A stretch of 64,000 nt of DNA from an uncultured bacterium (GTDB lineage Bacteria; Verrucomicrobiota; Kiritimatiellia; RFP12; UBA1067): the NCBI GenBank assembly GCA_902779865.1, contig CACZDG010000005.1:8207-72206 (forward strand), in the 5' to 3' direction. The notes below the pieces were generated by a model that searched no databases, was not told the origin of the DNA, and worked only from the letters and a program-made list of their open reading frames with translations. Every line of letters starts with the position of its first letter. Positions within the stretch are counted from its first letter, which is position 1. Made by a program: the position numbers and the translations under genes. Of the stretch, positions 32,001-46,662 are shown piece after piece.

Positions 32001-32262
32001 GTTCGCGGAGTCTGGCTACACGCTCTTCGAGGAGGCCTACCTCCTGAACTGCGCGCCGACGGCCGAGGCGGTGGCGGCGAAGAAGGCGCTGTTCCGCTTC
32101 AACGAGATCATTCCGGGCACCGTCCCGTCGATCGACGCAACGCTCTACAACGGAAGGGTGAGGATACTCGGCTCCCAGACGCTCGAAGGTGGCGGGACAT
32201 GGTCCGATGCCTCCGAAGATCTGGCGACGGCGCACTTCTTCAAGGCCGTGCTGACATTCTGA
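26017..32262 (+). CDS. giant secreted multidomain protein: lamin-tail (LTD) domains, PA14, Fn3-associated/chitobiase-like, CotH kinase-like domain
   Basis: Signal peptide. LTD FINEVMASNGE..LDWVELRNDNDDDIDVTGWYMYD. PA14 GSWTFSVGSDDGFSLEAWN. ATIYYTLDGTSPT. CotH core RYYNLFINGHYWGLYQTQERGDEDF, NLYAVRDRDDDDDG, FFLRHDAEHTMG. Confidence 0.8.
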   Translation: MSKVVKSFFAASIAACVAAASSPLFADTWFDAGIPSYTSWPDDDSAYEVPGVGVWTNTASAELGSSAGQTWLSVFAEEVTPLLFTPLQTRSVVTDEPTMVFNVKFTEGTSPLIADQTIKGSVTVVEKGEGSVYMGLMKDPDGATNIWRELSGATPDLANSVELRVSLRNYNGERQVRYAVGNTVLTSSYGEWAPTAYTGSSDDVTSAGMVGNGDLFNLAAETIVVRVKSPLTIPDIDGMGVVSVKVDGVEVSPEGDGTYLVPAGAYVAVTFAPDEGKYLDFRTMVFQMGDSAMTLPVAGRPSVVPPSSFLFINEVMASNGETAATENGGAELDWVELRNDNDDDIDVTGWYMYDNATKPTKWVQIEGSCVVPAHGFKIVWCDKSYTNWAAGEAHAKFGVGKSDSTVVLAYSNSVDAIVATMVLPPQMKDVSYGLGNREKTVLGKLDAAQWRVGNGEWQAASGPVGMPGAATGGFTVTSYQLNKDACANIPAVEGALASGRYSPKKTLTGVQTVAYKNASATISSEFSSSYRSVSEVGMADNGTYYAILVEGVVNIPRAGSWTFSVGSDDGFSLEAWNEKYHFQSEYTGARGYGQTPAIFRVQEPGAYNVRLLYFQATGGAALDFCVKEGEFEDYENFTLDGFSLVGTAASGVAHVGAWAGHVSTDVSAAMLNVTNALDWKATFALDAAPASDDAFRLKVRYADGFTAKVNGTVVTNVLVEEARVLADALTPVVIPIPSELLTVGDNLLEITAVNDAVNDPDFLLSAEVSVTKSAEELVFFREPTPGAKNTTAGYGPASPKVQFSVPHGYKTAAFDLTLSCADDPTATIYYTLDGTSPTTSSTPYTGPIHITGTTCIRAAVPQEGSVIQQDAAATYLFLDDILQQTSGVVPAGFPSTTINSQVMRYGMNQSIVNGADRDRLLRGFTNSVSTISLVIDPHNLFDPVEGIYVNAKACDGREWERTTMVEQIDPTNDANGFSTAGGIRIRGAFSRNPQYPKHSLRLFFRNDYGDGPLEFPLFGDEGAGKFKKVDLRTSQNYAWANGTGSTYKKDTFIHEVFARDTQRDMGELYTRSRYYNLFINGHYWGLYQTQERGDEDFAETYNGGDADLYDVIKTSQPGYVTGASEGTIDAWEALWNMAVNEGFSGAYSNNYRKAMGQNPDGSRNPEYPVYLNPTNLMDYVINFHYMVDYDSPAAASMANNLYAVRDRDDDDDGLKSQGFYFLRHDAEHTMGRHANSEAKDDPTLYGTEQSHANFKKLNAFNPGELHYKLCANPEYKMAFADRFYKHCLAQGGALTVPEATRRFQSRMAEIDDVIVCESARWATDGQTRQTWLSACGDCFTFITNRMPYMLSQYRNRGWYPSIDAGVVLNGTGATVVDGMVVASTDKIYLSGAGTVYYTLDGSDPRIEGGAVADGAVQYSGASPAPIDVPVIAKGDVWKYSDAGAKPAENWTAPDYDDSSWSSGASRLGFASSGTFGTALNRYVGGGSSGTQVTTYYFRKTFTMPAGAELMTELKAALDCDDGYVAYINGVEVKRDQVASTEYSAFSTATNMGEKNDTFTFPAGTLVEGENVIAVEVHQCNASSTDAWWNLALSYAQAVEVEGGIAVPPTGLTLTMRVLSPSGEWSALSTVNVRGELPQASVADGLRLAEALTSAEGDDTLDYLVVTNVAAGEIHLDGVKIVAWNAKKKSEADPSLTYFFPAGTSLGSGESLRIDAASFPTGGKLTNSQVGLRIYAAGGALVQDVYLDADWWSGACDGTGEYFVAKTFGAEAKTVSDWKPSVSWVEKNLRFFEFDGVPADGNGGDTGEYFVLTNLSDSVTLDLTGVVVNICKSGDLETSAKCIVTVPEMTLAPGATVRFDQATYWNGSKQKITNGALVMKIYDAEGATVQVSTPDQNNAAFANYKAKASSTNGGPVLRATSFTRETTTADWVEYTPAPADWPDDPDTEITSTTTAADLAITTGAFTNATPEVLRKLSKWAKANGVPYGGEAVNGVVFAESGYTLFEEAYLLNCAPTAEAVAAKKALFRFNEIIPGTVPSIDATLYNGRVRILGSQTLEGGGTWSDASEDLATAHFFKAVLTF

Positions 32263-32290
32263 CGGTGTCTTTATCAACAGGAGAAATAAG

Positions 32291-34630
32291 ATGAACATAA
32301 ATAAACTAATGACGCTCGCTGTAATAGGCGTAGCGGTGGCCTCGTTATCGTCGTATGCCGCGCCGGACCCTGAAACGGTATTCCGCAACCCGCCGCAAAG
32401 CGCTAAGACGGGCGTGTGGTGGCACTGGATGGGGTGCAACGTCTCGAAAGAAGGAATCGTCAAGGACCTCGACTGGTTCAAGGAGACCGGCATCGGCGCG
32501 GCGACGATCTTCGGCATGGCGGACGTCTGCTCGCCGTGGGCGACGAAGATCAAGAACAGCCCCAACGAGGGCCTGATTGCGTTCACTCCCGACTGGTGGA
32601 AGCTCGTGCGCTTCGCGTGCGAGGAGGCGGAGAAGCGCGGCATCGAGATCGGCGTACACAACTGTCCCGGCTACACCTCGACGGGCGGCCCGTGGATTCC
32701 CCCTCGTCTTTCGATGCGCGAGCTCGTGTTCAACGTCACGAACGCCGAGGCGCAGATATCGCTCACCGCGCACGCCGCATTCCCCGTGCAGGTGGGCGAA
32801 GGCGGGCCGTTCAAGAAGCCGGACATCCCAAGCCGCCGGACGGACCTTCAGGAGATCGCGGTCGTGGAGGGCGTGCGCGTGCAGCACATCCCGATGGGCT
32901 CCTTCACGCAGCCCAACCAGTGGGAGACGTTTGGTGTCGAGTGCGACAAGATGAACCCGGAGGCCGTCGCGTTCCACATGGACAAGGTGATCGGCGACAT
33001 GAAGAAGTACGTCGGCGACCAGATCGGACGCGGACTCAAGTTCGTCCTGCTCGACAGCTACGAGGCCGGATGGCCGTCATGGACCCCGAACATGCGCGCG
33101 GAGTTCAAGGCGCGGCGCGGGTACGATCCGCTGCCGTACCTGCCGATTCTCGGCGGGTTCAAGGTGTCCGTCGCGAAGGACAAGGCGGCGGAAAAGAAGT
33201 TCCGCGACGACTACAAGCTCACCATCAGGGAGCTCTACCGCGACGTGTTCTTCAAGATCATCCACGAAAAGCTTTCAGCAGTCGGACTCGAGATGGCCTG
33301 CGAGCCGTACGGCGGGCCGATCGACACGCGCATGTGCGCGGGTTACGTGGACCGGCTGATGACCGAGTTCTGGTACAGGCCGAACCTCAACCGCAAGCTC
33401 CCCAAACGCCTCGAATGGAACCAGTGGACCGGTCCCGCCGGGAAGCGCCACAACGTCGTCGAGGCGGAGGCGTTCACGGGCAGCCCCGGCGCCTGCAACT
33501 GGATCGAGACGCCGTATCTCCTGAAGGCGGCGGGCGACACGCAGTTCTACCGCGGCATCAACCGCATGACGCTGCATACGTGTCCGCTCCAACCGTGGCC
33601 GGACGAATTCCTGCCCGGCAAGGTGATGGGACGCTGGGGCACGCACTTCGGCCGCACGCAGACGTGGGCGAAGAGCGGCAAGGGCTTCTACACGTACCTC
33701 AACCGCTGCCAGGCGCTTCTCCAGTGGGGCGAGCCGAGCAAGATCCGCATCATCGGACACGACATCACGCCCAAGGGCACGCCGCTCACCGCCCACGCCC
33801 GCGAGGCGGACGGCACGGTCGTTTTCTTCGTGATGAACCATTCGGACCATCCCGCGTCCATGAACATGGGCCTTCCGAACATCGGCAAGGCGCCGGAGTG
33901 GTTCGATCCCGTCACGGGTACGGTTGCGCCGCTCGCTCTCGTCAACGGCAAGGCGCCCATCCAGCTCCCGCCCTGCGGCACGGGTTTCCTCGTGCTGCGT
34001 AAGCCGGCCGGCTCGCTTACGGCCAACGCGGACAGCGACTACTACCAGAAGCTCGACAAGCCGTTCACGGGTGGCGACGCGCAACCCGTCGCGGGACCAT
34101 GGCGCGTGACCTTCGGCGGAAAAACAATCGATATGCCTACGCTTTCCGACTGGACTGCCAACGCCGATCCCGACGTCAAGTATTTCAGCGGCACTGCAAA
34201 GTACTGCACGCGCCTTGTTGTCGCTCGTCTGCCGTCGAATGTCGGGTCAATCCTTACTCTCGGCAACTGCAACAACCAGGTGGCGAAGGTGATCCTCAAC
34301 GGCAAGGCGTACGCGCCGGTATGGTGCGCGCCCTACGAGGTGCGTTTCGCGCCGGGCGACCTGAAGGAAGGGGAGAACACGCTCGAGGTCGAGTTCACCA
34401 ACGTGTGGGCGAACCGGCTCATCGGCGACGAGCAGGAGCCGCCGGACTGCAAATTCGTGAAGGCGGTCTATCCTGGCGGATGGTATCTTGAATCCTTCCC
34501 CGACTGGTTCAAAAAGGGAATCGCGGCGCGTCCGTCGAAGGGCCGCAAGTGCTTCACGGACTGGAACTACTTCACGAAGGACTCCAAGCTCGCGCCGTCT
34601 GGCCTCATCGGTCCTGTCACGTTGCGATGA
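32291..34630 (+). CDS. secreted glycoside hydrolase, GH106-like (alpha-L-rhamnosidase-related jelly-roll family)
   Basis: Signal peptide. N-terminal FRNPPQSAKTGVWWHWMGCNVSKEGIVKDLDWFKETGIG and C-terminal LEVEFTNVWANRLIGDE are hallmark patterns of this family, from memory. Confidence 0.65.
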   Translation: MNINKLMTLAVIGVAVASLSSYAAPDPETVFRNPPQSAKTGVWWHWMGCNVSKEGIVKDLDWFKETGIGAATIFGMADVCSPWATKIKNSPNEGLIAFTPDWWKLVRFACEEAEKRGIEIGVHNCPGYTSTGGPWIPPRLSMRELVFNVTNAEAQISLTAHAAFPVQVGEGGPFKKPDIPSRRTDLQEIAVVEGVRVQHIPMGSFTQPNQWETFGVECDKMNPEAVAFHMDKVIGDMKKYVGDQIGRGLKFVLLDSYEAGWPSWTPNMRAEFKARRGYDPLPYLPILGGFKVSVAKDKAAEKKFRDDYKLTIRELYRDVFFKIIHEKLSAVGLEMACEPYGGPIDTRMCAGYVDRLMTEFWYRPNLNRKLPKRLEWNQWTGPAGKRHNVVEAEAFTGSPGACNWIETPYLLKAAGDTQFYRGINRMTLHTCPLQPWPDEFLPGKVMGRWGTHFGRTQTWAKSGKGFYTYLNRCQALLQWGEPSKIRIIGHDITPKGTPLTAHAREADGTVVFFVMNHSDHPASMNMGLPNIGKAPEWFDPVTGTVAPLALVNGKAPIQLPPCGTGFLVLRKPAGSLTANADSDYYQKLDKPFTGGDAQPVAGPWRVTFGGKTIDMPTLSDWTANADPDVKYFSGTAKYCTRLVVARLPSNVGSILTLGNCNNQVAKVILNGKAYAPVWCAPYEVRFAPGDLKEGENTLEVEFTNVWANRLIGDEQEPPDCKFVKAVYPGGWYLESFPDWFKKGIAARPSKGRKCFTDWNYFTKDSKLAPSGLIGPVTLR

Positions 34631-36825
34631 TGAAAATATCTTATTGCCTTGCGGTGTCCGTTTGCGGGGTGGTAATGTCCGCCAGCGCCGCGACGTTCCA
34701 TGTCAATCCCGTGGCCGCGCCGGGCGGCGATGGTTCGTCCTCGAAGCCGTTCGCCACGCTAGAGACGGCGCGCGACAGCGTGCGCGCGGCGCGTAAGGCG
34801 GGAAAAGTCGCCTCTGGCGAAGCGGTGGAGATCGTGCTCGCGCCGGGCGACTACGTGCCGATGGAAGGTTTCGCGCTCAAACCATGTGACGGCGGTGCGT
34901 ACGAATCGGCGCTGGTCGTCTGGAAGGCGGCCAAGGCCGGCACGGCGCGCATCGTGGGTGGCGTGCGTGTGCCGATGCGTGCGTTCAGTCCCGTTACGGA
35001 CGAGTCCGTTCTTGCGCGTCTCCCCGAAGAGGCACGCGGTAAGGTGCTGCAGGCCGATATCTCCGCGATCCTTCCCGGCAAGGTGCCGTCCATGGCCGCC
35101 GCGTTCGGTGGCACGCCCACCGCGCCGCTGCTGTTCCTGAACCACCGCTTCGGTACGCTCGCGCGCTGGCCGAACTCGGACTACACCTCGTTCTCGAAGT
35201 GCGTGGACCACGGTGCCCGGATCAAGATGACTTCCGGCGGCGGCAGCGTGAACAAGCCCGGTGCCTTTATCTACTCCAATCCGCGCGCGAAGCGGTGGAA
35301 CTTCGCAGAGGGCGTGTGGATGAACGGGTACTGGACGCACGACTGGAGCAACCACTCCGTGAAGGCCGCGTCCTACGGCGCGGAGAACGGCACGAGCGAC
35401 GTGATCCGCCTTGCCGACTCAATCCCGTACGGCGTGCTGGGTGGCACCTGGGGACGCAAGGACCGCAGGTTCTACGTGTTCAACCTGCTTGATGAACTGG
35501 ATACGCCTGGCGAATGGTACCTCGACCGCGCGCGCAAGACGCTTTACATCTGTCCGCCAGAGGGCGGGTTGAAGGATTCGGACGAAGTGTTCGTGGCGGT
35601 GTCCGGTGCACCGCTCGTTTCGGCGAAAGACATCGCGCACGTCCGCTTCGAGGGAATAACCTTTGAATACGCCTACGGGGATGGGCTCTCGATTGCCGGT
35701 ACGGATGTTCAAGTCGTCGGCTGCCGCGTGGCGTGCTGTGGCGGGTCGGGCGTATTGCTGCACGGTGACCGCAACGTGATGCGCGGCTGCGAGGTGGTAC
35801 AGGTCGGGCGCGTGGGCGTGTCGGCGAACGGCGGCGACCGCAAGACGCTCCGCCGCGCGGACTCCGTCTTTGAGGATAACCACATGCATGACTTCGGCGT
35901 GTTCCAACGCACCTACGCACCGGGTTTCGGCGTCAATGGCTGCGGCATCACGTTGCGCGCGAACGTGGTGCACGACGCACCGCACTCCGCCGTCCTCTAC
36001 GGTGGCAACGAGCACCTCTTCGAGTACAACAACGTCTATCGCGTGCTGCTGGAGACGGGCGACGCGGGCGCGTACTACACGGGACGCGACTGGACCACGC
36101 AGGGCAACGTGCTGCGTTTCAACTACACGCACGACCTCGGCGCGGGAGGAGAGATTGCCAACACGATGGGCTTCTACTTCGACGACTGCGACTGCGGCGA
36201 CGAGGTGTACGGCAACGTGTTCCACAACGTGTCGCGCGGCATCATGGTCGGCGGCGGACGTGAGCACCCGATTCGCAACAACGTCTTCTCGCGCTGCCTG
36301 ATCGGGATGTCTATCGACTGCCGCGGAATGACGTGGAAGCACTGGAACAGCGCCGAGCATGGTGGCCCGTCGTGGTTGCTGGAGGACAAGGCGAAGGCGT
36401 TCGACTACACGAACGGCGTATGGGCGATGCGCTATCCGCGCCTTGCGAACATCATGAACGACCATCCGCGCGAGCCGCTGTACAATCCCGTGGAGAACAA
36501 CGTCTTCATCGACTGCCAGAAGGAGATTCTCGTCCTTGACCGCATCGCGCCGCTTGCGCGGATGGCGCCGATTGCGGGCAACGTGGTCGTCAACACGCAA
36601 GGTACGAACGGCGTGAAGTGCGCATCTATCGATGCGCGAATCGCGTCCGGCTTCACGGTACTCAACGGTACGACCAACGCACCGTGCGCATTTGGCTTCG
36701 CGGATGCGGCGAACGGCGACTTCCGCCTCCTCCCCGACGCGGCGATCTTGAAGGCCTGCCCCGCTTTCCGTCCCCTGCCCATTGCTCGTATCCCGAACTG
36801 GGACAATGGGAACCATTCCCGTTAA
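34627..36825 (+). CDS. secreted right-handed parallel beta-helix repeat protein (polysaccharide lyase/hydrolase fold)
   Basis: Start at the ATG overlapping the previous stop (ATGA). Signal peptide MMKISYCLAVSVCGVVMSASA. Repeated G-x-x-V/I-x-N/D beta-helix rungs (GITFEYAYGDG, GCRVACCGGSG, GITLRANVVHD, NNVFSRC). Confidence 0.7.
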   Translation: MMKISYCLAVSVCGVVMSASAATFHVNPVAAPGGDGSSSKPFATLETARDSVRAARKAGKVASGEAVEIVLAPGDYVPMEGFALKPCDGGAYESALVVWKAAKAGTARIVGGVRVPMRAFSPVTDESVLARLPEEARGKVLQADISAILPGKVPSMAAAFGGTPTAPLLFLNHRFGTLARWPNSDYTSFSKCVDHGARIKMTSGGGSVNKPGAFIYSNPRAKRWNFAEGVWMNGYWTHDWSNHSVKAASYGAENGTSDVIRLADSIPYGVLGGTWGRKDRRFYVFNLLDELDTPGEWYLDRARKTLYICPPEGGLKDSDEVFVAVSGAPLVSAKDIAHVRFEGITFEYAYGDGLSIAGTDVQVVGCRVACCGGSGVLLHGDRNVMRGCEVVQVGRVGVSANGGDRKTLRRADSVFEDNHMHDFGVFQRTYAPGFGVNGCGITLRANVVHDAPHSAVLYGGNEHLFEYNNVYRVLLETGDAGAYYTGRDWTTQGNVLRFNYTHDLGAGGEIANTMGFYFDDCDCGDEVYGNVFHNVSRGIMVGGGREHPIRNNVFSRCLIGMSIDCRGMTWKHWNSAEHGGPSWLLEDKAKAFDYTNGVWAMRYPRLANIMNDHPREPLYNPVENNVFIDCQKEILVLDRIAPLARMAPIAGNVVVNTQGTNGVKCASIDARIASGFTVLNGTTNAPCAFGFADAANGDFRLLPDAAILKACPAFRPLPIARIPNWDNGNHSR

Positions 36826-36886
36826 ATCCACAGGGACAGAAAAACTACCACACGTTTCCAACGTCGTATGCAACGGAAGCACGAAA

Positions 36887-37822
36887 ATGCAACAGCAAGA
36901 GACCATACATGCCGTCATGGCGCCACTGGATGACGAATTCATAAGGTCACGCATTTATACAATTCGCGGCATACAAGTTATGTTGGATCGCGATTTGGCG
37001 ATTCTGTACGGCGTTGACGCGAAACGAATCAACGAGCAAGTAAAGCGCAATGCGGAGCGCTTCCCTGAAGACTTCATGTTTCGTCTTGCAAAGGACGAGT
37101 GTTTAAGGTCGCAAATTGCGACCTTAAACATGGAGCGCGGGAAGCATCTGAAATATATGCCGCATGCCTTTACGGAAAGCGGCGTTGCCATGCTGAGCGG
37201 AGTGTTGCGTTCTACTGTTGCCATTGACGTCAATGTGAGGATAATGCGTGCATTTGTTTCCATGCGAAGAGCATTGTCCTCGATAGCGCCTGTCTTGGCA
37301 AGAGTGGCAGAGACCGAGAGACTGCAACTCGAGGAAAAGGCAGCCCGACTTGCGGACCAGGCGAAGAACGAGGAGCGTTTTGACACGATCTTCAAGGCGA
37401 TGGACGGGGGCGATTTCCCGCCGCAGAAGGTGTTTTTCGACGGCAAGCATTACGACGCATATTCATTTGCGAGGAAGCTGGTCCGCAAGGCGAAGAAGAA
37501 CATCGTCCTCGTGGACAACTATTGCGACGATGTCACGCTCGACATCCTTTCGCAAAAATGCGGCGGTGCGGATGTGCTGATTGCCACCACGCACAAATCT
37601 GCCACCAAGTTCATATCGCCGACCGCCGTCGCCAAGTTCAACAAGCAGAATCCGACGCTCACGATCAAGACCGTTGGTTCATTCCACGATAGATTTCTCA
37701 TTCTCGACGGCACCGAACTCTACCACTTCGGCGCGTCCATGAAAGACCTGGGACGTCAATATTGCGCCATCACCAAGATGGACGCCATGTTCATCCCGTC
37801 GATCATGCAGCGAATCCCGTAG
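36887..37822 (+). CDS. ORF6N (KilA-N-related) DNA-binding domain protein with conserved uncharacterised C-terminal domain
   Basis: IYTIRGIQVMLDRDLAILYGVDAKRINEQVKRNAERFPEDFMFRL, HAFTESGVAMLSGVL. C-terminal VLVDNYCDD...FHDRFLILDGTELYHFGASMKDLG. First gene of the AT-richer island. Confidence 0.8.
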   Translation: MQQQETIHAVMAPLDDEFIRSRIYTIRGIQVMLDRDLAILYGVDAKRINEQVKRNAERFPEDFMFRLAKDECLRSQIATLNMERGKHLKYMPHAFTESGVAMLSGVLRSTVAIDVNVRIMRAFVSMRRALSSIAPVLARVAETERLQLEEKAARLADQAKNEERFDTIFKAMDGGDFPPQKVFFDGKHYDAYSFARKLVRKAKKNIVLVDNYCDDVTLDILSQKCGGADVLIATTHKSATKFISPTAVAKFNKQNPTLTIKTVGSFHDRFLILDGTELYHFGASMKDLGRQYCAITKMDAMFIPSIMQRIP

Positions 37823-37896
37823 CCACCGATTTATGCTATACTATCCCCGTTCCTCAAACCAAAGGAAGAATGATGATGTATTCGCTTGATGAGCAT

Positions 37897-37970
37897 AAAA
37901 AAAGCCCGGCGAACCGGGCCGCAGTCTCAAAACGACTTCGGCATATAGCCTTGTTGTGATAAGATGCGTG
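37897..37970 (-). ncRNA. predicted tracrRNA of the type II-C system
   Basis: The minus strand reads GCAUCUUAUCACAAC (anti-repeat, 13/15 complementary to repeat nt 1-15). This is followed by AAGGCUAUAUGCC (nexus-like), AGUC-GUUUUGA-GACU hairpin, and GCCCGG-UUCG-CCGGGC plus U7 terminator. It has its own consensus promoter. The 5' end is inferred, not mapped. Confidence 0.8.
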
Positions 37971-37973
37971 CAC

Positions 37974-38002
37974 ATAGTACCTCATTTGCTGCACCAAGTC
38001 AA
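37974..38002 (-). promoter_or_regulatory. tracrRNA promoter TTGACT-17 nt-TACTAT (minus strand)
   Basis: Reverse complement of 37997-38002 is TTGACT and of 37974-37979 is TACTAT, with exact 17-nt spacer. Divergent from and overlapping the cas9 5' region. Confidence 0.65.
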
Positions 38003-38019
38003 GAAGGAAAGGACAAAAA

Positions 38020-41000
38020 ATGAAAAAAACATTAGGTCTCGATTTAGGGTCGAATTCGCTTGGATGGGCGATTCTAGATGACATTACGGGGGACATCTTG
38101 GACAAGGGGGTGATCGTGTTCCCAGAGGGCGTTGACCTTGACGCGAAATCTTCGGCAGATACCCCGGCAGCCATTCGCCGTGCAGCGAGGATGGCGCGTC
38201 GCATGAAGTTCAGAAGGAAACTTCGCAAGTGGCATCTTCTCAATATCCTCATTGATGTCGGGATGTGTCCACTGACGCACGCCGAACTGGACGAGTGGAA
38301 AAAGACTGGCCGGTATCCGCTTGGCAACAAGGCTTTTCTTGAATGGCTCAAGGCCACTGACACCTCTAACCCATACTGTGACCGCGCAGCAGCGGCATCG
38401 GGGAAAGTGCCGCCCCTGACATTGGGAAGGGCGCTTTACCACATCGCCCAGAGGCGCGGGTTCAAGAGTTCGCGAAAAGACGAGGCCGATCTTGCGGACG
38501 AAACAGCAGGGCAGGAGAAGCAACTCGACAAGGAACTGGGTGCGGTCAAGACGGACATCGAGACCTTGACGAAAGAGATTGAGGCGGCGGGATGCAAAAC
38601 ACTTGGGCAGTATTTCTTCAAACTGCTCCAGAACGAAAAGGGAAAACTCGACAAGACGCGCATCCGCTGCAGATACACCGGACGGATCGAACACTACGAA
38701 AAGGAATTTGCCGTCATAATGGATGTTCAGGGGTACTCTTCCGGCGACGAATTGCGGACGAAATTATACAAAGCCATATTCAGCCAGCGCCCTTTACGAT
38801 CTCAAGCTCATTTGGTTGGGCCGTGTCCGCTTGAACCGCGTAATCCCCGCGTCCAGATTGGTCATCCAGCGTTTGAAGAGTTCCGCATGTTGGCATTTGT
38901 CAACAATCTATCCCTCGAGGACGCAGACGGGAACTGCCGAGACGAACAGGGCAATATTCTATACCCGCTTTCTGCAAAAGACTGCGAAGTCATTTGCTCG
39001 GCGTTCATGAAGGCTGCACCATCCATCAAGTTTGGTGATATCATCAAGTTGTTCAAGAAAGACCCGCGCTTCAAGTCACAGGGGCTCAGGTTCCATTACT
39101 ATCGTGCGGATGATTCAGTGGCGACATGCCAGACGCGCCACAAGATCAGGTCCGCGTTCGGAAGTGTACCCTACGATGAGCAGAAGGTGTTTGACGCTCT
39201 TACGTTCTTCGACGACAACGACAAGCTCAGCTCTTGGTTTCGAAAGCATTTCCCGGCTCTTGATGATGCGGCGGTTAAGAAGCTCGTCTCCATACACCCC
39301 AAGGAAGGTAATGCCAGTTACTCTCTGAAAGCCATCAACAAGATGCTTCCATTCCTGCGAAAGGGGTTTGAACTCTCGCAGGCTCGCTTTCTGGCGAAAC
39401 TTCCTGATGTCATTCCGGATTTCGCCGCAAACGAGCAGGCTATCTTGCAAGGCTTGGAGGAAAAGCGTTGGGCATTTCGCGAAGAACGCCGCCGATATGG
39501 AGAGATGGACTCCGCAGAACGCCGCAAAGCCCAAGCTCCGCAGCTCTTCGATTTTTATCAGAGATACCTCCTCGACAATTGGAATGTGACGGACGAGAAG
39601 TGGAAGCGGCTCTATCTTCATGGCGAAGGTACTTATGTAAAAGAGACCGAGTATAAATGCAATGGAACGAAAGTCCAGTTGGCACGCCCTCGTCTTCCTC
39701 CTGTGAAACTTGGAATGATCCGTAACCCGCTTGTGCAACGCGCGATGACCACGCTTCGCCGACTCGTTAACTACCTCGGCGACCACGGCAAGCTCGAAGA
39801 AACGGATACAATTCGGATTGAACTTGCCCGCACCGTCAACGACTTCGCCACCCGCAAGGCGTGGCAGGAATGGCAGAAGTCGCATCAGCGTATGCGCGCC
39901 GAGGCAGCTGCGGAGATCGCCAAGTTGGGTATCTCCGTCACGGAGGACGCCGTCGACCGCTATGTCCTCTGGAAGGAGCAGGACGGTATCTGCCTCTACA
40001 CCCATAGGACGATTAACGTGGCCGATCTATTTGCCGGAAACAAGTTCGACATCGAGCACACGATTCCTCGTTCGCTTTCCGGTGATGATTCGCTTGCCAA
40101 CAAGACCATCTGTGAGGCTGCCTACAATCGCCAGACGAAACAGGGGCGCATACCGCGCGAATGTCCAAACTGGGAAGAGATCGATACGATGCTCCGCCCG
40201 TGGCGTGAGAAGGTGGAACAGCTAGAGAAGACCTACCGCAGCCAAACGCGAAGCGCACGAGTGAAGACGGATCCGTCCCAGCGGAGTCAGGCACGAGTGA
40301 AGTCACTCACTACGAAGTTTGAGTTGGCATACTGGCGCGACAAGCTCCGGCGTTTCGAGATAACCTCTGACAAACTGCAGTCGCCGGAATCTGGGTTGGG
40401 CGGGTTCAAGAAGCGCCAGCTCGTGGATACGGGCATCATGTGTTCGCATGCCGTCGAGCTGCTCCGCAGCGTCTATCCCGCTACGTTCTCGGTCAATGGC
40501 GCTGCAACAGCATTTGCCCGCAAGGCATGGGGCATACAGGGTGACGAGGCGAAGGACCGCACGGAACATACGCACCATGCAAAGGACGCCATGGTCATTG
40601 CGGCGCTTACCCCAGCACGCTTCACGGCCATTTGTACGGCGCTGAAGGATGACGGTGCGGAGCGGCGCCGTGAATGTGACGTTTGCCCGCCGCCATACGA
40701 AGGTTTTGCGGACAAAGTGCGCCATGCGTGTGAAGAGATACTTGTAAAGCATGTCATGCGGCAGACAACGCTTCGTCAGAGTTCCAAACGTAACGTGTTG
40801 GCGAAGGCGCATCCCCCCAAGGGAAATCCCGAGGGGCCTCTCGTCAAGGCCGTACTCTCACGCGGCGACACGGTGCGCGGCGCGTTGCACAAGGAAACAT
40901 TCTACGGGTGCATACAGACGCCAGGCCAAAAGGACAGGCAGTTCGTTGTCAGAAAGCCTCTTTTGGGGCCGGTCAAGGACGCGCAGGCCATCGTCAGCAA

Positions 41001-41703
41001 GATCATTGACCCCGCCATACGTGATATTGTAGATCGGCGGCTAAAGGAAATGGTGGCGAGTGGTGTGAAGAATGTTTCAGCAGGTGACATTCGGATGCCG
41101 TCGGGAGTGCCAATCAACAAGGTTAGGATTGCCGCCAAGACGACTAATCCCTCCACATTGCGCGATCATGTGATGCCATCCGTTCAAGCCTACAAAACGC
41201 CCTATTACGTGACATCCGCCGAAGGGAGCAATTTCCGGTTGGGGCTTTTCAGTGAAGCAGGACGAATGTTCGCTATTCCCGACAATTCACTTGATTGGGC
41301 ACAGAACCACAAACGTTCGGACTACCGCCCGTTGGACCTACGTCCAGGATTTATTGGATATGTTAAGCCAGGAACTATGGCATTGGCTTATCATGAAGGT
41401 CATTTGGAAGAACTGGAAGCAATGTCGAGCGCTGATCTGCGTAAGCGTCTTTATAAGGTTGTGAAATTTGAAAGCAGTGGACGCATTACTTTACGATTCC
41501 ATTGTGAGGCTCGTACCAGTACGGTACTTGAGGGGGAACTCGCCGCCGCTGGATTCAACAAGAAAGGAGAATCAAGGATAAATTATGACGTTCCGAATCG
41601 TCTGCTCTTGTTAAGTCCAGGTACATACACCAAGCAGGTGCTTTTCGAGGGTATCCACTTCCGCATGATGTTGGACGGCTCCATCCAGTTCATCAAGAAG
41701 TGA
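38020..41703 (+). CDS. cas9: Cas9 endonuclease, type II-C architecture (1227 aa)
   Basis: RuvC-I GLDLGSNSLGWAIL. Arg-rich bridge helix AAIRRAARMARRMKFRRKLRK. HNH DIEHTIPRSLSGDDSLANKTICEAAYNRQTK. RuvC-III HHAKDAMVIAAL. Followed by cas1-cas2 only. Confidence 0.95.
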   Translation: MKKTLGLDLGSNSLGWAILDDITGDILDKGVIVFPEGVDLDAKSSADTPAAIRRAARMARRMKFRRKLRKWHLLNILIDVGMCPLTHAELDEWKKTGRYPLGNKAFLEWLKATDTSNPYCDRAAAASGKVPPLTLGRALYHIAQRRGFKSSRKDEADLADETAGQEKQLDKELGAVKTDIETLTKEIEAAGCKTLGQYFFKLLQNEKGKLDKTRIRCRYTGRIEHYEKEFAVIMDVQGYSSGDELRTKLYKAIFSQRPLRSQAHLVGPCPLEPRNPRVQIGHPAFEEFRMLAFVNNLSLEDADGNCRDEQGNILYPLSAKDCEVICSAFMKAAPSIKFGDIIKLFKKDPRFKSQGLRFHYYRADDSVATCQTRHKIRSAFGSVPYDEQKVFDALTFFDDNDKLSSWFRKHFPALDDAAVKKLVSIHPKEGNASYSLKAINKMLPFLRKGFELSQARFLAKLPDVIPDFAANEQAILQGLEEKRWAFREERRRYGEMDSAERRKAQAPQLFDFYQRYLLDNWNVTDEKWKRLYLHGEGTYVKETEYKCNGTKVQLARPRLPPVKLGMIRNPLVQRAMTTLRRLVNYLGDHGKLEETDTIRIELARTVNDFATRKAWQEWQKSHQRMRAEAAAEIAKLGISVTEDAVDRYVLWKEQDGICLYTHRTINVADLFAGNKFDIEHTIPRSLSGDDSLANKTICEAAYNRQTKQGRIPRECPNWEEIDTMLRPWREKVEQLEKTYRSQTRSARVKTDPSQRSQARVKSLTTKFELAYWRDKLRRFEITSDKLQSPESGLGGFKKRQLVDTGIMCSHAVELLRSVYPATFSVNGAATAFARKAWGIQGDEAKDRTEHTHHAKDAMVIAALTPARFTAICTALKDDGAERRRECDVCPPPYEGFADKVRHACEEILVKHVMRQTTLRQSSKRNVLAKAHPPKGNPEGPLVKAVLSRGDTVRGALHKETFYGCIQTPGQKDRQFVVRKPLLGPVKDAQAIVSKIIDPAIRDIVDRRLKEMVASGVKNVSAGDIRMPSGVPINKVRIAAKTTNPSTLRDHVMPSVQAYKTPYYVTSAEGSNFRLGLFSEAGRMFAIPDNSLDWAQNHKRSDYRPLDLRPGFIGYVKPGTMALAYHEGHLEELEAMSSADLRKRLYKVVKFESSGRITLRFHCEARTSTVLEGELAAAGFNKKGESRINYDVPNRLLLLSPGTYTKQVLFEGIHFRMMLDGSIQFIKK

Positions 41704-41709
41704 CATTTG

Positions 41710-42609
41710 ATGATTGCCCGAACACTTTCATTCGGTTCTCCCGGGAAACTCTCCATTGCTCATAGACAGCTTGTCTATGATGGCGATGGAGGGATTCACC
41801 GAACCTTCCCCGTGGAGGATATCGGCTTTGTCATAATTGAAACTGGACAGATGGTTGTCACGACATCGTGCCTGCAGGCATTGGCAGACCAGAACGTAGC
41901 CGTAGTCATTTGCGACGACAAGCATGTGCCGTCCGCCCAGCTGTTGCCGTTTGCCGCTCATTCTACGGCACAGGAAACAGTAGAGGCTCAACTCGCCGCT
42001 ACGCCTGCGGTACAAGGTAGGTTGTGGCGACAGATTGTCCGGGCCAAACTCCTTAACCAGTCAGAGTTGCTTGTTCGGTTAGGTCGCCCAAATGCGCTTC
42101 GACTAAAGACATTGGCGGACGAAGTGAAGAATGGCGATCCGTCAAACTGTGAAGCGCAGGGGGCACGTATCTATTTCCAGACAATCAGGACGGATGCAGA
42201 TTTTCTGCGTGACCAGGAAGGCGACGGATTGAATGCCGCACTCAATTACGGTTACGCCGTTTTGCGTGCGGCGGTCGCACGGGCGTTGGTCGGATCAGGA
42301 CTCGTCTGTTTCAGGGGTGTACATCATCATAACCGTTACAATCCCTTCTGTTTGGCGGATGATGTGATGGAGCCGTATCGACCTTTCGTCGATCAATACG
42401 TGTTTGGAGATACCGATGGCGTGTTTGAAAACATTGACGACGGCCTGACCCGCCCCATGAAAGCCAGGCTTCTTCAGATGCTGACATGCGACGTCCGGAT
42501 TGGGTCGGTGAAACGTCCGTTGATGTTGGGCGTGACATCTACTACAGCATCCATCGCCAAGTATTATCTCGGCAAGACGAAGGAACTCGCCTTGCCCTCA
42601 TTCGTATGA
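41710..42609 (+). CDS. cas1: CRISPR-associated endonuclease Cas1 (type II)
   Basis: NAALNYGYAVLRAAVARAL, GVHHHNRYNPFCLADDVMEPYRPFVD. ATG at 41710 (a TTG at 41707 is also possible). Confidence 0.95.
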   Translation: MIARTLSFGSPGKLSIAHRQLVYDGDGGIHRTFPVEDIGFVIIETGQMVVTTSCLQALADQNVAVVICDDKHVPSAQLLPFAAHSTAQETVEAQLAATPAVQGRLWRQIVRAKLLNQSELLVRLGRPNALRLKTLADEVKNGDPSNCEAQGARIYFQTIRTDADFLRDQEGDGLNAALNYGYAVLRAAVARALVGSGLVCFRGVHHHNRYNPFCLADDVMEPYRPFVDQYVFGDTDGVFENIDDGLTRPMKARLLQMLTCDVRIGSVKRPLMLGVTSTTASIAKYYLGKTKELALPSFV

Positions 42610-42953
42610 CGCTTTGTTCGCAAACAGCACTGAACGGATACGCCATCATGTGGCTCTACGTCATGTTTGACCTGCCAACGGAGACGAAGCGACAACGACA
42701 TGACGCGACTAAGTTCCGGAAGGATTTACTTGAGGACGGCTTTTCGATGCACCAGTACTCGGTTTACATTCGGCACTGCGCGTCGTTGGAGTCCGCAAGT
42801 GTCCACATAGGGCGAATCAAGCGTTTTATTCCAGAAGAGGGTTTCGTGTCAATTCTCAAAGTGACCGACAAGCAATTCGGCGACACGATTAACTTACTCG
42901 GCCGGAAGCGCAAGCCCCGCCCTCCGGTGCCGGTTCAGCTTGAATTCTTCTGA
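42606..42953 (+). CDS. cas2: CRISPR-associated endoribonuclease Cas2
   Basis: ATGA overlap with cas1. YAIMWLYVMFDLPTETKRQRHDATKFRKDLLEDGFSMHQYSVYIRHC is typical of type II Cas2. Confidence 0.9.
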   Translation: MTLCSQTALNGYAIMWLYVMFDLPTETKRQRHDATKFRKDLLEDGFSMHQYSVYIRHCASLESASVHIGRIKRFIPEEGFVSILKVTDKQFGDTINLLGRKRKPRPPVPVQLEFF

Positions 42954-42999
42954 AAAAAAAGGCGCAGTACCGAAAACGGCACTGCGCATCCTCTTTTTT
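42953..42999. terminator. bidirectional Rho-independent terminator between cas2 and the array
   Basis: Stem GCGCAGTACCG/CGGCACTGCGC with loop AAAA. T6 follows on the plus strand after 6 nt. On the minus strand the stem is followed directly by C plus T8 (plus-strand A8 at 42953-42960). Confidence 0.7.
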
Positions 43000-43054
43000 C
43001 TCGCAACATAACCTTGGACTATGTGCTGTCAATAAAGGCCGAAAGTGGTCCAAT

Positions 43055-46000
43055 ATTGAAAGCGATAGCCAAAGAGCATCAAATCACAACAACTGATAAG
43101 CCATTGCGCAAGGCTGATAGATTGAAAGCGATAGCCAAAGAGCATCAAATCACAACGTTATCCTCGCCGTTTTGGGCATTGTGGTATTGAAAGCGATAGC
43201 CAAAGAGCATCAAATCACAACGGCACCCGGAACATCAGATAGGGGGAACGCATTGAAAGCGATAGCCAAAGAGCATCAAATCACAACACGGAAGGTAAAA
43301 GGGAAGTTGAAGAGGAAATTGAAAGCGATAGCCAAAGAGCATCAAATCACAACATACGCGCACGCGCGTAGCGGACCTTCGCCATTGAAAGCGATAGCCA
43401 AAGAGCATCAAATCACAACCGGACGAGATCATTGGTCTTTCGGAAGTTTATTGAAAGCGATAGCCAAAGAGCATCAAATCACAACTGTTTGGAAGGGAGC
43501 CTTTAGCATTAAGCTATTGAAAGCGATAGCCAAAGAGCATCAAATCACAACAGTCAAATCTACAGTCTGTTGAGACAAATATTGAAAGCGATAGCCAAAG
43601 AGCATCAAATCACAACACCAATAAACCTTCTCCTGTTTCCTCTCCATTGAAAGCGATAGCCAAAGAGCATCAAATCACAACACAAATTCACCTTCTCCTG
43701 TTTCCTCTCCCATTGAAAGCGATAGCCAAAGAGCATCAAATCACAACCCTGCGGCAAACATGCTCGATGCTGCTTACATTGAAAGCGATAGCCAAAGAGC
43801 ATCAAATCACAACCCCACTGGTACACAGCGCCGCGAGGGTCTAATTGAAAGCGATAGCCAAAGAGCATCAAATCACAACAACGTTGTCACGCATGCCACG
43901 ACATCTATATTGAAAGCGATAGCCAAAGAGCATCAAATCACAACCTCGGATCGCAAACGAAAGATTTATGGTTTATTGAAAGCGATAGCCAAAGAGCATC
44001 AAATCACAACCCTGTAGGCCCTGTGTCACCCGTCGGCCCATTGAAAGCGATAGCCAAAGAGCATCAAATCACAACAGTTGAACCGCGCATCGCGCTTTTC
44101 CGTCATTGAAAGCGATAGCCAAAGAGCATCAAATCACAACTAGCATGGTAGCATAGATAGTGAATTGCGCATTGAAAGCGATAGCCAAAGAGCATCAAAT
44201 CACAACATGCTTTGTTTGTTTCTAATATTGTCACGCATTGAAAGCGATAGCCAAAGAGCATCAAATCACAACTCGAACGCCTTATAGGTTGGGCGGGCAT
44301 TGATTGAAAGCGATAGCCAAAGAGCATCAAATCACAACCGCATGGTCGCAAAGGTAGTGTATTGCGCATTGAAAGCGATAGCCAAAGAGCATCAAATCAC
44401 ACTGCCGCTCGATTGAAAGCGATAGCCAAAGAGCATCAAATCACAACTCGGGGCTTGCGGGGAAGAAGTCCCTGCGGATTGAAAGCGATAGCCAAAGAGC
44501 ATCAAATCACAACCTATTCTGTCGCCGTCCCGCTTGCAAGCCTATTGAAAGCGATAGCCAAAGAGCATCAAATCACAACCGCATGGTCGCAAAGGTAGTG
44601 TATTGCGCATTGAAAGCGATAGCCAAAGAGCATCAAATCACATCAAATCACAACAAATACTATGAGGATTACAACTCCGCTGAATTGAAAGCGATAGCCA
44701 AAGAGCATCAAATCACAACATCCAGACCCTTTTGGACAATATTGGTTCATTGAAAGCGATAGCCAAAGAGCATCAAATCACAACTATGGGCGCGATACGT
44801 TCGCGGTCTCCTCTATTGAAAGCGATAGCCAAAGAGCATCAAATCACAACCGTGTCCTTGGAACGTCTTTTGATTTGTTCATTGAAAGCGATAGCCAAAG
44901 AGCATCAAATCACAACCTCCGATCGCAAACAAAAGATTTATGGTTTATTGAAAGCGATAGCCAAAGAGCATCAAATCACAACAGCCACTGCACGAAAGCA
45001 TCACGAGGGCAATTGAAAGCGATAGCCAAAGAGCATCAAATCACAACCGGCGCGGCGACCATGTGTTTGCAACGCGCATTGAAAGCGATAGCCAAAGAGC
45101 ATCAAATCACAACTCCTCCGGCTTGATGCGGTTCACCGCGCGATTGAAAGCGATAGCCAAAGAGCATCAAATCACAACGTGGTAGATAGTGTGTAGTATT
45201 GCAGTCGCATTGAAAGCGATAGCCAAAGAGCATCAAATCACAACAATGCCTCTGTCGGTCAGTTTAAGCAGTCCATTGAAAGCGATAGCCAAAGAGCATC
45301 AAATCACAACGTGGATGTCGTGGCGGTGGTGGCGGTGGCTATTGAAAGCGATAGCCAAAGAGCATCAAATCACAACATGGACGTGCCATTGGTCAACGGA
45401 TTTACTATTGAAAGCGATAGCCAAAGAGCATCAAATCACAACTGTGGCTTGCCCTTCTCTCTATATCTTCCTATTGAAAGCGATAGCCAAAGAGCATCAA
45501 ATCACAACTCGAGCAAGATTTGTTCGCGCTTGAGGACATTGAAAGCGATAGCCAAAGAGCATCAAATCACAACCTCATCGTCGCGTGGCGGCTGTTTAAG
45601 CGCATTGAAAGCGATAGCCAAAGAGCATCAAATCACAACCTTCTCGTAATCTTCGCCAGTCGCGCTTTATTGAAAGCGATAGCCAAAGAGCATCAAATCA
45701 CAACCCAGTTGAAAAGCGGGGCAAGGTTCGGAAAATTGAAAGCGATAGCCAAAGAGCATCAAATCACAACTATGTCTCCCGTGATACTGTCTTGCATTGG
45801 CATTGAAAGCGATAGCCAAAGAGCATCAAATCACAACCGCTCATGTATAAGGCGGTTTTCGATTCGCATTGAAAGCGATAGCCAAAGAGCATCAAATCAC
45901 AACGCGGTGACACAGAGGGCGGCGGTGATGATATTGAAAGCGATAGCCAAAGAGCATCAAATCACAACCGCACATACGCGAACGCGTATCAACCTCGCAT

Positions 46001-46165
46001 TGAAAGCGATAGCCAAAGAGCATCAAATCACAACGCGGTTGCGCCGCGCATTTCTTCGCCCTTATTGAAAGCGATAGCCAAAGAGCATCAAATCACAACA
46101 TATGCGGACATATAACCAAGGGACGCCACATTGAAAGCGATAGCCAAAGAGCATCAAATCACAAT
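43055..46165 (-). CRISPR. CRISPR array: 48 repeats of 36 bp, 47 spacers (mostly 29-30 bp); functional strand minus
   Basis: Plus-strand unit is ATTGAAAGCGATAGCCAAAGAGCATCAAATCACAAC. Its reverse complement GTTGTGATTTGATGCTCTTTGGCTATCGCTTTCAAT has the GTTGT...CAAT form of type II-C repeats and pairs with the predicted tracrRNA. The last repeat (46130-46165) carries one substitution. There are two aberrant repeats (44368, 44609). Confidence 0.97.
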
Positions 46166-46274
46166 GCAGAGTGGACATACGGATAGGATTCCGAAAGTCT
46201 TCTCTAACACAGAATTGTGCTCTGGCTAAATGGTCTTGAGTTTAGATTGTCAAAGATCTGCAGAAAACAATCCC

Positions 46275-46283
46275 ATTATACCA
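46275..46283 (-). promoter_or_regulatory. extended -10 element TGGTATAAT (minus strand) pointing into the array
   Basis: Plus strand ATTATACCA at 46275-46283, about 110 nt from the first transcribed repeat. A TTGACA (reverse complement of 46248-46253) lies further downstream but has only a weak -10. Confidence 0.5.
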
Positions 46284-46495
46284 TAAATGCTGGTGAAAAG
46301 ATAGGGGGTGTTACGTCGTTGGGTGTTTGCGGCGGCGCGGTTCTCGAGTATGCCCTGCCACCTCAGGCGCATAGTGACGCTGGAGTGGTGAGCGGTCAGT
46401 GTCGCCGCCTAGAAGGGTGCTTTCCATGCGGCGGCGGCTCGTTGAGACGACTCGCCCCACCGGTGGGTGTTCACAGTCGTACACCACGGAGGGTT

Positions 46496-46656
46496 TATAC
46501 CCCAGTATGAGGGGCTCGTACACCCCAGTATGAGAGCCTCTTACACCCCAGTATAAGATGCTCGTACACCCCAGTATAAGTGCCTCTTACACCCCAGTAT
46601 AAGGGGCTCGTACACTCCAGTGTAACAGGGCTTTGCACCCCAGTCCGCGTAAGCAG
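46496..46656 (+). repeat. seven direct repeats with 23-bp period (iteron-like), core TACACCCCAGTATAAG
   Basis: Core starts at 46519, 46542, 46565, 46588, 46611 and 46634, plus a degenerate copy at about 46496. Variable 7-nt linkers. Confidence 0.9.
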
Positions 46657-46662
46657 CGTACC

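Follow-up and report, generated by a model that had tools for sequence, protein, structure and literature searches.

A predicted compact tracrRNA gene divergent from cas9 in a type II-C CRISPR locus of a Kiritimatiellae-type genome

The window analyzed here is the whole 64-kb stretch taken from contig CACZDG010000005.1 of an uncultured bacterium with a Kiritimatiellae-type genome. It contains a CRISPR-Cas (short palindromic repeats, clustered and regularly interspaced, with associated genes) locus with the gene order tracr, cas9, cas1, cas2, and array. The subject of this analysis is the short minus-strand element at 37897 to 38002, immediately upstream of cas9. Its position, pairing, and conservation make it very probable that this element is the gene for the tracrRNA (trans-activating CRISPR RNA) of a type II-C CRISPR-Cas9 system.

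Organization of the locus

Read on the minus strand from 38002 to 37897, the element has the order TTGACT-(17 nt)-TACTAT-GTGCAC-GCATCTTATCACAAC-AAGGCTATATGCCG-A-AGTCGTTTTGAGACT-GC-GGCCCGGTTCGCCGGGC-TTTTTTT. Its predicted parts are as follows.

37997 to 38002, minus strand: -35 box TTGACT of the tracrRNA gene (promoter scan)
37974 to 37979, minus strand: -10 box TACTAT of the tracrRNA gene, separated from the -35 box by a 17-nt spacer (promoter scan)
37897 to 37969, minus strand: predicted primary tracrRNA of 68 to 73 nt, with a putative start at A37969 or G37967 and the 3' end in the U7 tract
37953 to 37967, minus strand: anti-repeat GCAUCUUAUCACAAC (DNA GCATCTTATCACAAC), pairing with repeat nt 1 to 15 as 8 bp, a U.U/U.U loop, and 5 bp
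37939 to 37952, minus strand: AA linker and nexus hairpin AAGGC-UAUAU-GCCG, whose GGC/GCC stem is invariant in all loci
37923 to 37937, minus strand: hairpin 2, AGUC-GUUUUGA-GACU, with 97.5% of cells paired
37897 to 37920, minus strand: Rho-independent terminator GGCCCGG-UUCG-CCGGGC followed by U7 (terminator scan)

The cas genes are encoded on the opposite strand.

38020 to 41703, plus strand: cas9, 1227 amino acids (aa) (Pfam HNH_4, RuvC_III, and Cas9_a; NCBIfam cas_Csn1, 424 bits)
41707 to 42609, plus strand: cas1 of the type II NMENI subtype (Pfam Cas_Cas1; TIGR03639 cas1_NMENI, 259 bits)
42606 to 42953, plus strand: cas2, 115 aa (Pfam CRISPR_Cas2; TIGR01573)

The RuvC and HNH motifs of the window Cas9 are intact (D8, IELAR, DIEH..N, and HHAKDA). 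The cas2 start codon overlaps the cas1 stop codon (ATGA), and homologues of 115 to 116 aa have the same overlap. Pfam and NCBIfam annotation revealed neither csn2 nor cas4 at the locus, and the presence of cas9, cas1, and cas2 without these two genes therefore assigns it to type II-C by gene content. The distance from the end of the anti-repeat to the ATG of cas9 is 53 nt, and cas9 starts 18 nt beyond the tracrRNA -35 box.

Promoter and start site of the tracrRNA gene

Consensus scans in silico found both a promoter and a Rho-independent terminator for the tracrRNA gene, as befits a separate transcription unit. The -35/-10 pair is kept across related loci, in which its commonest form is TTGACG-17-TATCAT, and TTGAC[GTA] occurs at the equivalent position in most of them. 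In 27 loci, the end of the -10 hexamer lies 13 to 15 nt (range, ~11 to 18 nt) ahead of the CACAAC motif and ~6 nt ahead of the first paired anti-repeat base. The position of the -10 box, with spacing of the usual kind, predicts A37969 or G37967 as the start site and thus an RNA of 68 to 73 nt. This promoter geometry points to a start at, or 1 to 2 nt before, the anti-repeat. A longer 5' form would need to start inside cas9, and the 5' end of the tracrRNA is apparently set by transcription initiation.

Conservation across related cas9 loci

Relatives of the window Cas9 number in the thousands in gut, rumen, and fecal metagenomes, and those that are named come from metagenome-assembled genomes of Kiritimatiellae. 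Thirty-five related loci were gathered from genome and metagenome collections and from contigs with more distant homologues; they carry the prefix L below, and L036 is a viral contig without a cas9 locus. The tracrRNA element lies directly upstream of cas9, on the opposite strand, in all 27 loci that include upstream DNA, and the Cas9 proteins of these loci are 37 to 91% identical to that of the window or to each other. Each locus has one copy, always divergent and 50 to 120 nt upstream of cas9, whatever the neighboring genes, which are unrelated and include a sulfate transporter gene, a transketolase gene, hisG, and a tRNA region.

A covariance model built from 20 tracrRNA copies returned one strong match per locus (E values of 1e-9 to 1e-22) and exactly one copy in the window, at 37896 to 37973 (98.9 bits; E value of 4e-21). 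Pattern and covariance-model searches, which pointed to this single site, replaced an RNAduplex scan of the whole window for other anti-repeats; that scan was dropped because it did not discriminate, with GC-rich coding DNA giving -32 to -34 kcal/mol everywhere. A search of IMG/VR viral contigs with the tracrRNA core, aimed at phage-borne mimics of tracrRNA or of single guide RNA (sgRNA), gave no matches.

Pairing between anti-repeat and CRISPR repeat

The repeats that the element is predicted to recognize form a single array beyond cas2.

43055 to 46165, minus strand (CRISPR RNA [crRNA] sense): CRISPR array of ~48 repeats of 36 nt, with spacers of 29 to 30 nt

In the crRNA sense, on the minus strand, the repeat is GTTGTGATTTGATGCTCTTTGGCTATCGCTTTCAAT. 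This predicted orientation, in which the repeat matches those of type II-C systems, follows from the complementarity of the anti-repeat and from homologous sgRNAs. The alternative, an array transcribed on the plus strand, was rejected, as the corresponding plus-strand anti-repeat would have neither scaffold nor terminator and the homologous validated sgRNAs fix the orientation.

The anti-repeat DNA is the reverse complement of repeat nt 1 to 15 except that TT replaces AA, such that 13 of 15 bases match. Outside the array, it is the only match to repeat nt 1 to 15 with ≤2 mismatches in the window, for which 0.06 matches are expected by chance. Across loci, repeat nt 1 to 15 are nearly invariant and nt 16 to 36 diverge freely (e.g., TCTTTGGCTATCGCTTTCAAT, TCTATTGAAATGAGAAACAGT, and TAATATTCAATGTGATACAAT). 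Repeat variants have their counterparts in the tracrRNA: L013 combines the repeat ATTGTGAATTGAC with a matching GTCTTTTCACAAT, L035 combines a repeat with ..GATGTT with a matching AACATC, and the clade of L029 to L034 combines GTTGTGAAAAGAC with GTCTTTTCACAAC.

Pairing was counted in joined sequences made of repeat nt 1 to 18 and the 18 nt up to the end of the anti-repeat, from 20 loci and three published orthologues (23 pairs). Repeat positions 1 to 8 and 11 to 13 are paired in essentially all of them, and two-sided, compensatory changes between repeat and anti-repeat occur at positions 1, 7, 8, 13, 14, and 15. Positions 9 and 10 are U.U in 19 pairs and A:U in the other four. Positions 16 to 18 are unpaired in 12 to 13 of the 23. 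Farther along, repeat nt 16 to 27 and the sequence upstream of the anti-repeat are 43% paired in 16 loci, G:U included, a level judged to be near chance without a shuffle control. This low pairing suggests that the duplex ends near repeat position 15, and the natural crRNA:tracrRNA duplex would therefore comprise only ~13 bp.

Predicted fold of the scaffold

A chimera of repeat nt 1 to 15 and tracrRNA, GUUGUGAUUUGAUGC-GAAA-GCAUCUUAUCACAAC.., folds with -41.6 kcal/mol into the 8-bp helix, the 2-by-2 U.U loop, the 5-bp helix, the GGC/GCC nexus, the AGUC/GACU hairpin, and the terminator. The fold of the free tracrRNA has a z score of -4.45 relative to shuffled sequences. In the model-guided alignment, standard pairs occupy 97.9% of pair cells and eight pairs show two-sided changes; none of 500 shuffles reached the observed values of pairing and covariation. 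Two-sided changes are found at all seven pairs of the terminator across loci, and hairpin 2 has a single compensatory change, from C:G to A:U, in L008.

These results support every structural feature of the original prediction for this site, and all of them lie at the coordinates given there. It had proposed a tracrRNA of ~70 to 75 nt divergent from cas9, whose position and orientation are kept in every related locus with upstream DNA, and a TTGACT-17-TACTAT promoter of its own on the minus strand, which the promoter scan recovered in the same place and which is conserved in position. The 15-nt anti-repeat with a U.U/U.U loop was borne out as the sole match in the window and by its covariation with the repeat at six positions. 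The proposed AAGGC...GCC nexus, two hairpins, and U7 tract likewise held, as the hairpins covary and the architecture is that of published functional sgRNAs.

Comparison with known guides

Homologous guides appear in Supplementary Data 2 of Gasiunas et al. (2020, Nat Commun 11:5512; PMC7606464) for three biochemically characterized orthologues, which were tested with sgRNAs and have determined protospacer-adjacent motifs (PAMs): Rsp Cas9 from Rikenellaceae sp. (1213 aa; clade VIII; PAM, NVNDCCY), Ghe Cas9 (1525 aa; clade IX; PAM, NARWAC), and Cme3 Cas9 (1124 aa; clade IX; PAM, NATCCTN). No paper was retrieved when full texts were searched for the exact sequence of the tracrRNA or of the repeat, and homologues turned up only in this supplementary table. 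Over the 400 N-terminal residues available, the window Cas9 is 39% identical to Rsp Cas9, 37% identical to both Cme3 and Ghe Cas9, and 27% identical to Nme2 Cas9. The Rsp value applies to 387 N-terminal residues, and the window Cas9 and Rsp Cas9 have similar lengths (1227 versus 1213 aa). At 37 to 39% identity over the N-terminal part, the window Cas9 and the three orthologues are distant relatives only. The hosts differ: the window derives from Kiritimatiellae, within the Planctomycetes-Verrucomicrobia-Chlamydiae (PVC) group, and the three orthologues derive from Rikenellaceae and from compost and hot-spring metagenomes.

The repeats of the three orthologues begin with GUUGUGGUUUGAUGUA.. or GUUGUGGAUUGAUUAG.. 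and share the start GUUGUG[GA][UA]UUGA with the window repeat. Their tracrRNAs contain ..CAUCUUAUCACAAU-AAGGCUAUAUGCCGAAG.., which has ..CUU[AU][UC]CACAA[UC]-AAGGC-N3-5-GCCG in common with the window, and Ghe and the window have exactly the same nexus, AAGGCUAUAUGCCGAAG. When folded as sgRNAs, the guides of the window, L008, L013, Ghe, Rsp, and Cme3 all show one predicted architecture. The order common to the window and the three published guides is an 8-bp lower stem, a 2-by-2 U.U loop, an upper stem, a 2-nt AA linker, a 3- to 4-bp nexus, a second hairpin, a terminator, and a U-tract. The upper stem differs, with 7 to 11 bp in the Ghe, Rsp, and Cme3 guides, 5 bp in the window, and 3 to 6 bp in relatives of the window. 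The published tracrRNAs were predicted from genomes, carry additional 5' sequence, and have no defined promoter or 5' end.

Judged by sequence and predicted fold, the guide design at this locus is not new and belongs to a catalogued, experimentally working guide class. The features that appear distinctive are the very short natural duplex (~13 bp) and a tracrRNA 5' end apparently set by initiation. The "minimal guide" of the original prediction thus stands with respect to the short duplex (8 + 5 bp), but not as a new design, as it is a shortened member of the catalogued class. The U.U/U.U mismatch, which the original prediction likened to the bulge of Cas9 guide duplexes, is present as the same 2-by-2 loop in published sgRNAs but is not obligatory in the wider family, in which a sister clade has AA:UU pairs at this position.

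Similarity to the type II-C systems of Neisseria meningitidis and Campylobacter jejuni was assessed from established knowledge, from the work of Dugar et al. as summarized in PMC12080349, and from the Nme2 row of the Gasiunas Supplementary Data 2. Shared features are the cas9-cas1-cas2-array order, an NMENI-type Cas1, an array predicted to be read toward the cas genes, a 36-nt repeat starting with GUUGU and ending with ..CAAU, an AAGGC..GCCG-type nexus after the anti-repeat, a probable acquisition side at the last repeat, and a mutated first ("extra") repeat. Among solved Cas9 structures, the nearest to the window protein are Nme type, with similarity mainly in the HNH region (E value of ~1e-30). 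The N. meningitidis and C. jejuni anti-repeats pair with ~24 or more repeat nucleotides and are cleaved by RNase III, whereas the window duplex would have ~13 bp. Furthermore, their crRNAs start from promoters inside each repeat, whereas the window has a poor -10 box at the repeat end and a strong candidate promoter outside the array. In N. meningitidis, interference does not require RNase III. None of six terms relating to guide-RNA processing occurs in the type II-C paper on F. psychrophilum.

The Rfam tracrRNA family (RF02348, Streptococcus type) belongs to the same functional class (anti-repeat plus Cas9-binding scaffold) but differs too much in sequence and structure from the window element to match it. 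The Streptococcus pyogenes tracr-L is said, in 2021 work by Workman et al., to autoregulate the cas9 promoter. Like tracr-L, the tracrRNA gene described here is divergent from cas9 and near its promoter. Unlike tracr-L, it has no room for a long tracrRNA form and offers promoter overlap only; the window gave no evidence of an S. pyogenes-style guide-like 5' extension targeting the cas9 promoter.

Candidate cas9 promoters

On the plus strand of L009 (positions 4939 to 4987), TTGTGA-18-TGaTATAAT is a candidate cas9 promoter whose -10 box abuts or overlaps the tracrRNA -10 box and whose -35 box lies inside the anti-repeat DNA. TGATATAAT is also present in the plus-strand reading of L002, L003, L008, and L017 to L020. 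In the window, the promoter scan detected no clear promoter for cas9 on the plus strand in the interval from the tracrRNA gene to the ATG. Competition of the tracrRNA gene and cas9 for RNA polymerase is conceivable, as is antisense read-through of the tracrRNA gene by cas9 transcription.

Array ends, spacers, and pre-crRNA promoter

Three features flank the array.

42962 to 42987, no strand assigned: GC-rich hairpin between A and T runs (minus-strand terminator scan, 11 pairs plus T8)
43030 to 43054, no strand assigned: CAATAAAGG-(small variable hairpin)-CCAAT motif directly beside the cas2-proximal repeat, found in the corresponding place in all related arrays inspected (L001 to L025)
46275 to 46283, minus strand: extended -10 promoter TGgTATAAT, ~100 nt upstream of the first repeat (sequence inspection)

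The hairpin at 42962 to 42987 could act as a terminator in both directions between cas2 and the array. A promoter-like TTGACA-16-TATGTT (43005 to 43032, minus strand) lies between it and the array end and would give a tiny transcript; this site may be due to chance, as the scan found 4 sites in the region versus 4.6 expected.

Related arrays have mutated or truncated repeats and a putative promoter at the cas-distal end and a conserved flank at the cas2-proximal end. In the window, the first repeat in the transcription sense (46151 to 46165) carries a G1-to-A change (ATTGTGATTTGATGC), which would mispair with the tracrRNA as A.C. Feussner et al. (2025, PMC12080349) describe type II-C systems in which new spacers enter at the last repeat and report a strategy in which the extra repeat carries mutations that disable it. 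The G1-to-A change, the truncated remnants, and the leader motif fit this picture, and the CAATAAAGG-hairpin-CCAAT motif probably serves this type II-C family as a leader on the acquisition side or as an anchoring sequence.

The TGgTATAAT at 46283 to 46275 is a candidate promoter for the precursor crRNA (pre-crRNA). It was not flagged by the two-hexamer promoter scan. Most related arrays likewise have TGnTATAAT at their cas-distal end, together with a subsequent (A/T)TCTTTGA(C/A)A motif (~46258 to 46245 in the window) and, in many cases, a repeat remnant truncated at its 5' end. Because type II-C arrays are described as having promoters within their repeats, a strong promoter outside the array is unusual for them. 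Repeat 3' ends with good extended -10 boxes (TGnTACAAT or TATAAT) occur in L008, L024, and L029 to L034, as TGATACAAT, TGATATAAT, or TGGTACAGT, and resemble the in-repeat promoters of Neisseria. The window repeat ends with ..GCTTTCAAT (TTCAAT), a poor -10 box with no TG and no A at hexamer position 2, and the subclade of the window, L014, L015, L021, and L025 has degraded boxes of the form ..CTTTCAAT or ..CTTTCAGT. Within the family, there may have been a shift in how crRNAs are transcribed.

The spacer at 43420 to 43449 is a 30/30 match to a 68-kb IMG/VR contig (IMGVR_UViG_3300032030_000073; L036:6445-6474), and the array therefore holds a spacer of viral origin. This protospacer, the only one found in six spacer scans of IMG/VR, has the 3' flank CCACACAG in the crRNA sense. 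Local BLAST of 476 spacers against the collected loci gave chance matches only, and comparison of the array with GenBank phages gave one nonsignificant 25/26 match (E value of 0.9).

Several irregularities were noted within the array. The adjacent spacers at 43617 to 43646 and 43682 to 43711 have a common 20-nt core (ccttctcctgtttcctctcc), as if from variants of one target, and it is one of these two that has the nonsignificant phage match, to the fecal microvirus "bajarodino virus 8". The spacer cgcatggtcgcaaaggtagtgtattgcgc is present twice, at ~44340 and ~44581, within an irregular stretch (44339 to 44660) that also contains a unit with a mutated repeat end and a spacer of only 8 nt (44389 to 44420) and a repeat with a 10-nt internal duplication (catcaaatca; 44631 to 44654). 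These irregularities look like recombination or slippage scars.

Flanking regions

The CRISPR locus is flanked by an ORF6N-domain gene on one side and by open reading frames (ORFs) for proteins without Pfam domains on the other. The upstream region, 26017 to 37822, encodes a 2081-aa LTD/CotH/chitobiase-C protein, a GH106 alpha-L-rhamnosidase, a beta-helix protein, and the ORF6N-domain protein; this context looks like glycan degradation rather than a defense island. Just beyond the candidate CRISPR promoter, an intergenic tandem array at 46495 to 46644 has a 23-nt period (consensus, ACCCCAGTATAAGAGGCTCGTAC; ~6 copies). A separate tandem array at 47048 to 47160, also with a 23-nt period (consensus, GTGACCAGCTGCTGGGCACTGGT; ~5 copies), is located inside a 275-aa ORF without a Pfam domain.

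Alternative explanations

A tracrRNA with canonical maturation would start farther upstream, or lengthen its duplex by noncanonical pairing, and would be coprocessed with crRNA by RNase III, as in Streptococcus, Neisseria, and Campylobacter. Such coprocessing holds for all type II systems that have been studied by experiment (PMC3737331), the upper stems of Rsp, Ghe, and Cme3 are longer, and pairing in L031 and L032 could reach ~16 to 19 nt when G:U pairs are counted. This explanation is nevertheless improbable: pairing past repeat nt 15 in the 16 loci was judged near chance (by comparison without shuffles), repeat nt 16 to 36 drift without matching change upstream of the anti-repeat, and the conserved -35 and -10 boxes, with the cas9 start codon so close behind, leave no space for a 5' extension. 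It is very unlikely that the element instead acts mainly in cis on cas9 expression, as DNA or as RNA, being either an overlapping divergent promoter or an antisense to the cas9 leader, with the repeat-like 15-mer as a relic. The overlapping candidate promoter of L009, the plus-strand TGATATAAT in seven other loci, and the lack of a clear cas9 promoter past the tracrRNA gene of the window, owing to which cas9 transcription may cross that gene antisense, are all compatible with a cis role. A purely cis role leaves unexplained the compensatory changes between the anti-repeat and a repeat ~5 kb away, the conserved minus-strand nexus and hairpins downstream of the anti-repeat, and the homology to sgRNA scaffolds that work in vitro; cis and guide roles are also not mutually exclusive. 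The feature could, finally, be functionless, combining the terminator of the upstream ORF6N gene with an orphan degenerate repeat. The terminator does lie 75 nt downstream of the ORF6N stop codon, and the anti-repeat is short and imperfect. However, the terminator U-tract is present on the minus strand only, the element accompanies cas9 in 27 loci with unrelated upstream genes, the 15-mer match is hardly expected by chance in the window, and the covariance-model matches are highly significant. Conservation and covariation effectively refute this last explanation, to which we attach almost no credence.

Assignment as a tracrRNA gene has to be balanced against several observations. The existence of the RNA, its length, and its start site are all predictions. 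The lowest-energy fold of the free RNA sequesters part of the anti-repeat. The nexus pairs are invariant and hairpin 2 contributes one compensatory change, so that most covariation within the RNA comes from the terminator, and covariation of that kind is shown by any terminator. An Rfam scan of 36500 to 47000 at an E value of ≤10 gave no tracrRNA match and only three spurious matches, as expected for a nonstreptococcal scaffold. With a single protospacer, no PAM is derivable and the array orientation has no independent check. Given the good repeat-end boxes in L008 and L029 to L034, crRNA biogenesis may differ between subclades, and the step that dispenses with RNase III is based on duplex length alone.

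Proposed mechanism and implications

For the tracrRNA gene favored here, a sigma-70-type promoter, back to back with cas9, would drive a structured minus-strand RNA ending at the intrinsic terminator, and this primary transcript of ~70 nt would already be the mature form. Its first 15 nt are complementary to nt 1 to 15 of every CRISPR repeat in the crRNA sense, and the nexus, second hairpin, and terminator hairpin make up the scaffold bound by Cas9 in related guides that have been validated by experiment. The array would be transcribed on the minus strand from the cas-distal TGnTATAAT promoter into a long pre-crRNA, in which tracrRNA and Cas9 would capture each repeat via its first 15 nt. Because the duplex would be too short for a typical RNase III substrate, the crRNA ends would probably arise from trimming of unprotected RNA and not from canonical RNase III coprocessing, and RNase III-independent crRNA maturation is plausible. 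Cas9 reads the lower stem, internal loop, and nexus, whereas the upper stem is needed mainly for processing by RNase III and tolerates shortening when guides are engineered.

We tentatively suggest, with more doubt than confidence, that the lineage (Kiritimatiellae and related PVC bacteria) runs on a minimal dual guide. Its tracrRNA would be made final by initiation alone and would pair with each repeat over ~13 bp, and its crRNAs would mature by trimming without RNase III. In many members, overlapping -10 regions of the tracrRNA gene and cas9, with the cas9 -35 box in the anti-repeat DNA, would couple the output of the two genes.

The tracrRNA predicted here would be the missing guide component for a large, uncharacterized clade of ~1200-aa Cas9 proteins of gut and rumen bacteria, and the nucleases of this clade would be immediately testable with an sgRNA scaffold of ~90 nt. 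It would also represent a natural case in which only the lower stem, the internal loop, and a 3- to 5-bp upper stem of the repeat:anti-repeat duplex are kept, in agreement with engineering results in which the upper stem is dispensable. This raises the question of how a long pre-crRNA matures with a duplex that RNase III would find too short. Anti-repeats as short as this one may also be the reason that, for some type II loci, early surveys reported anti-repeats that were weak or absent (PMC3737331).

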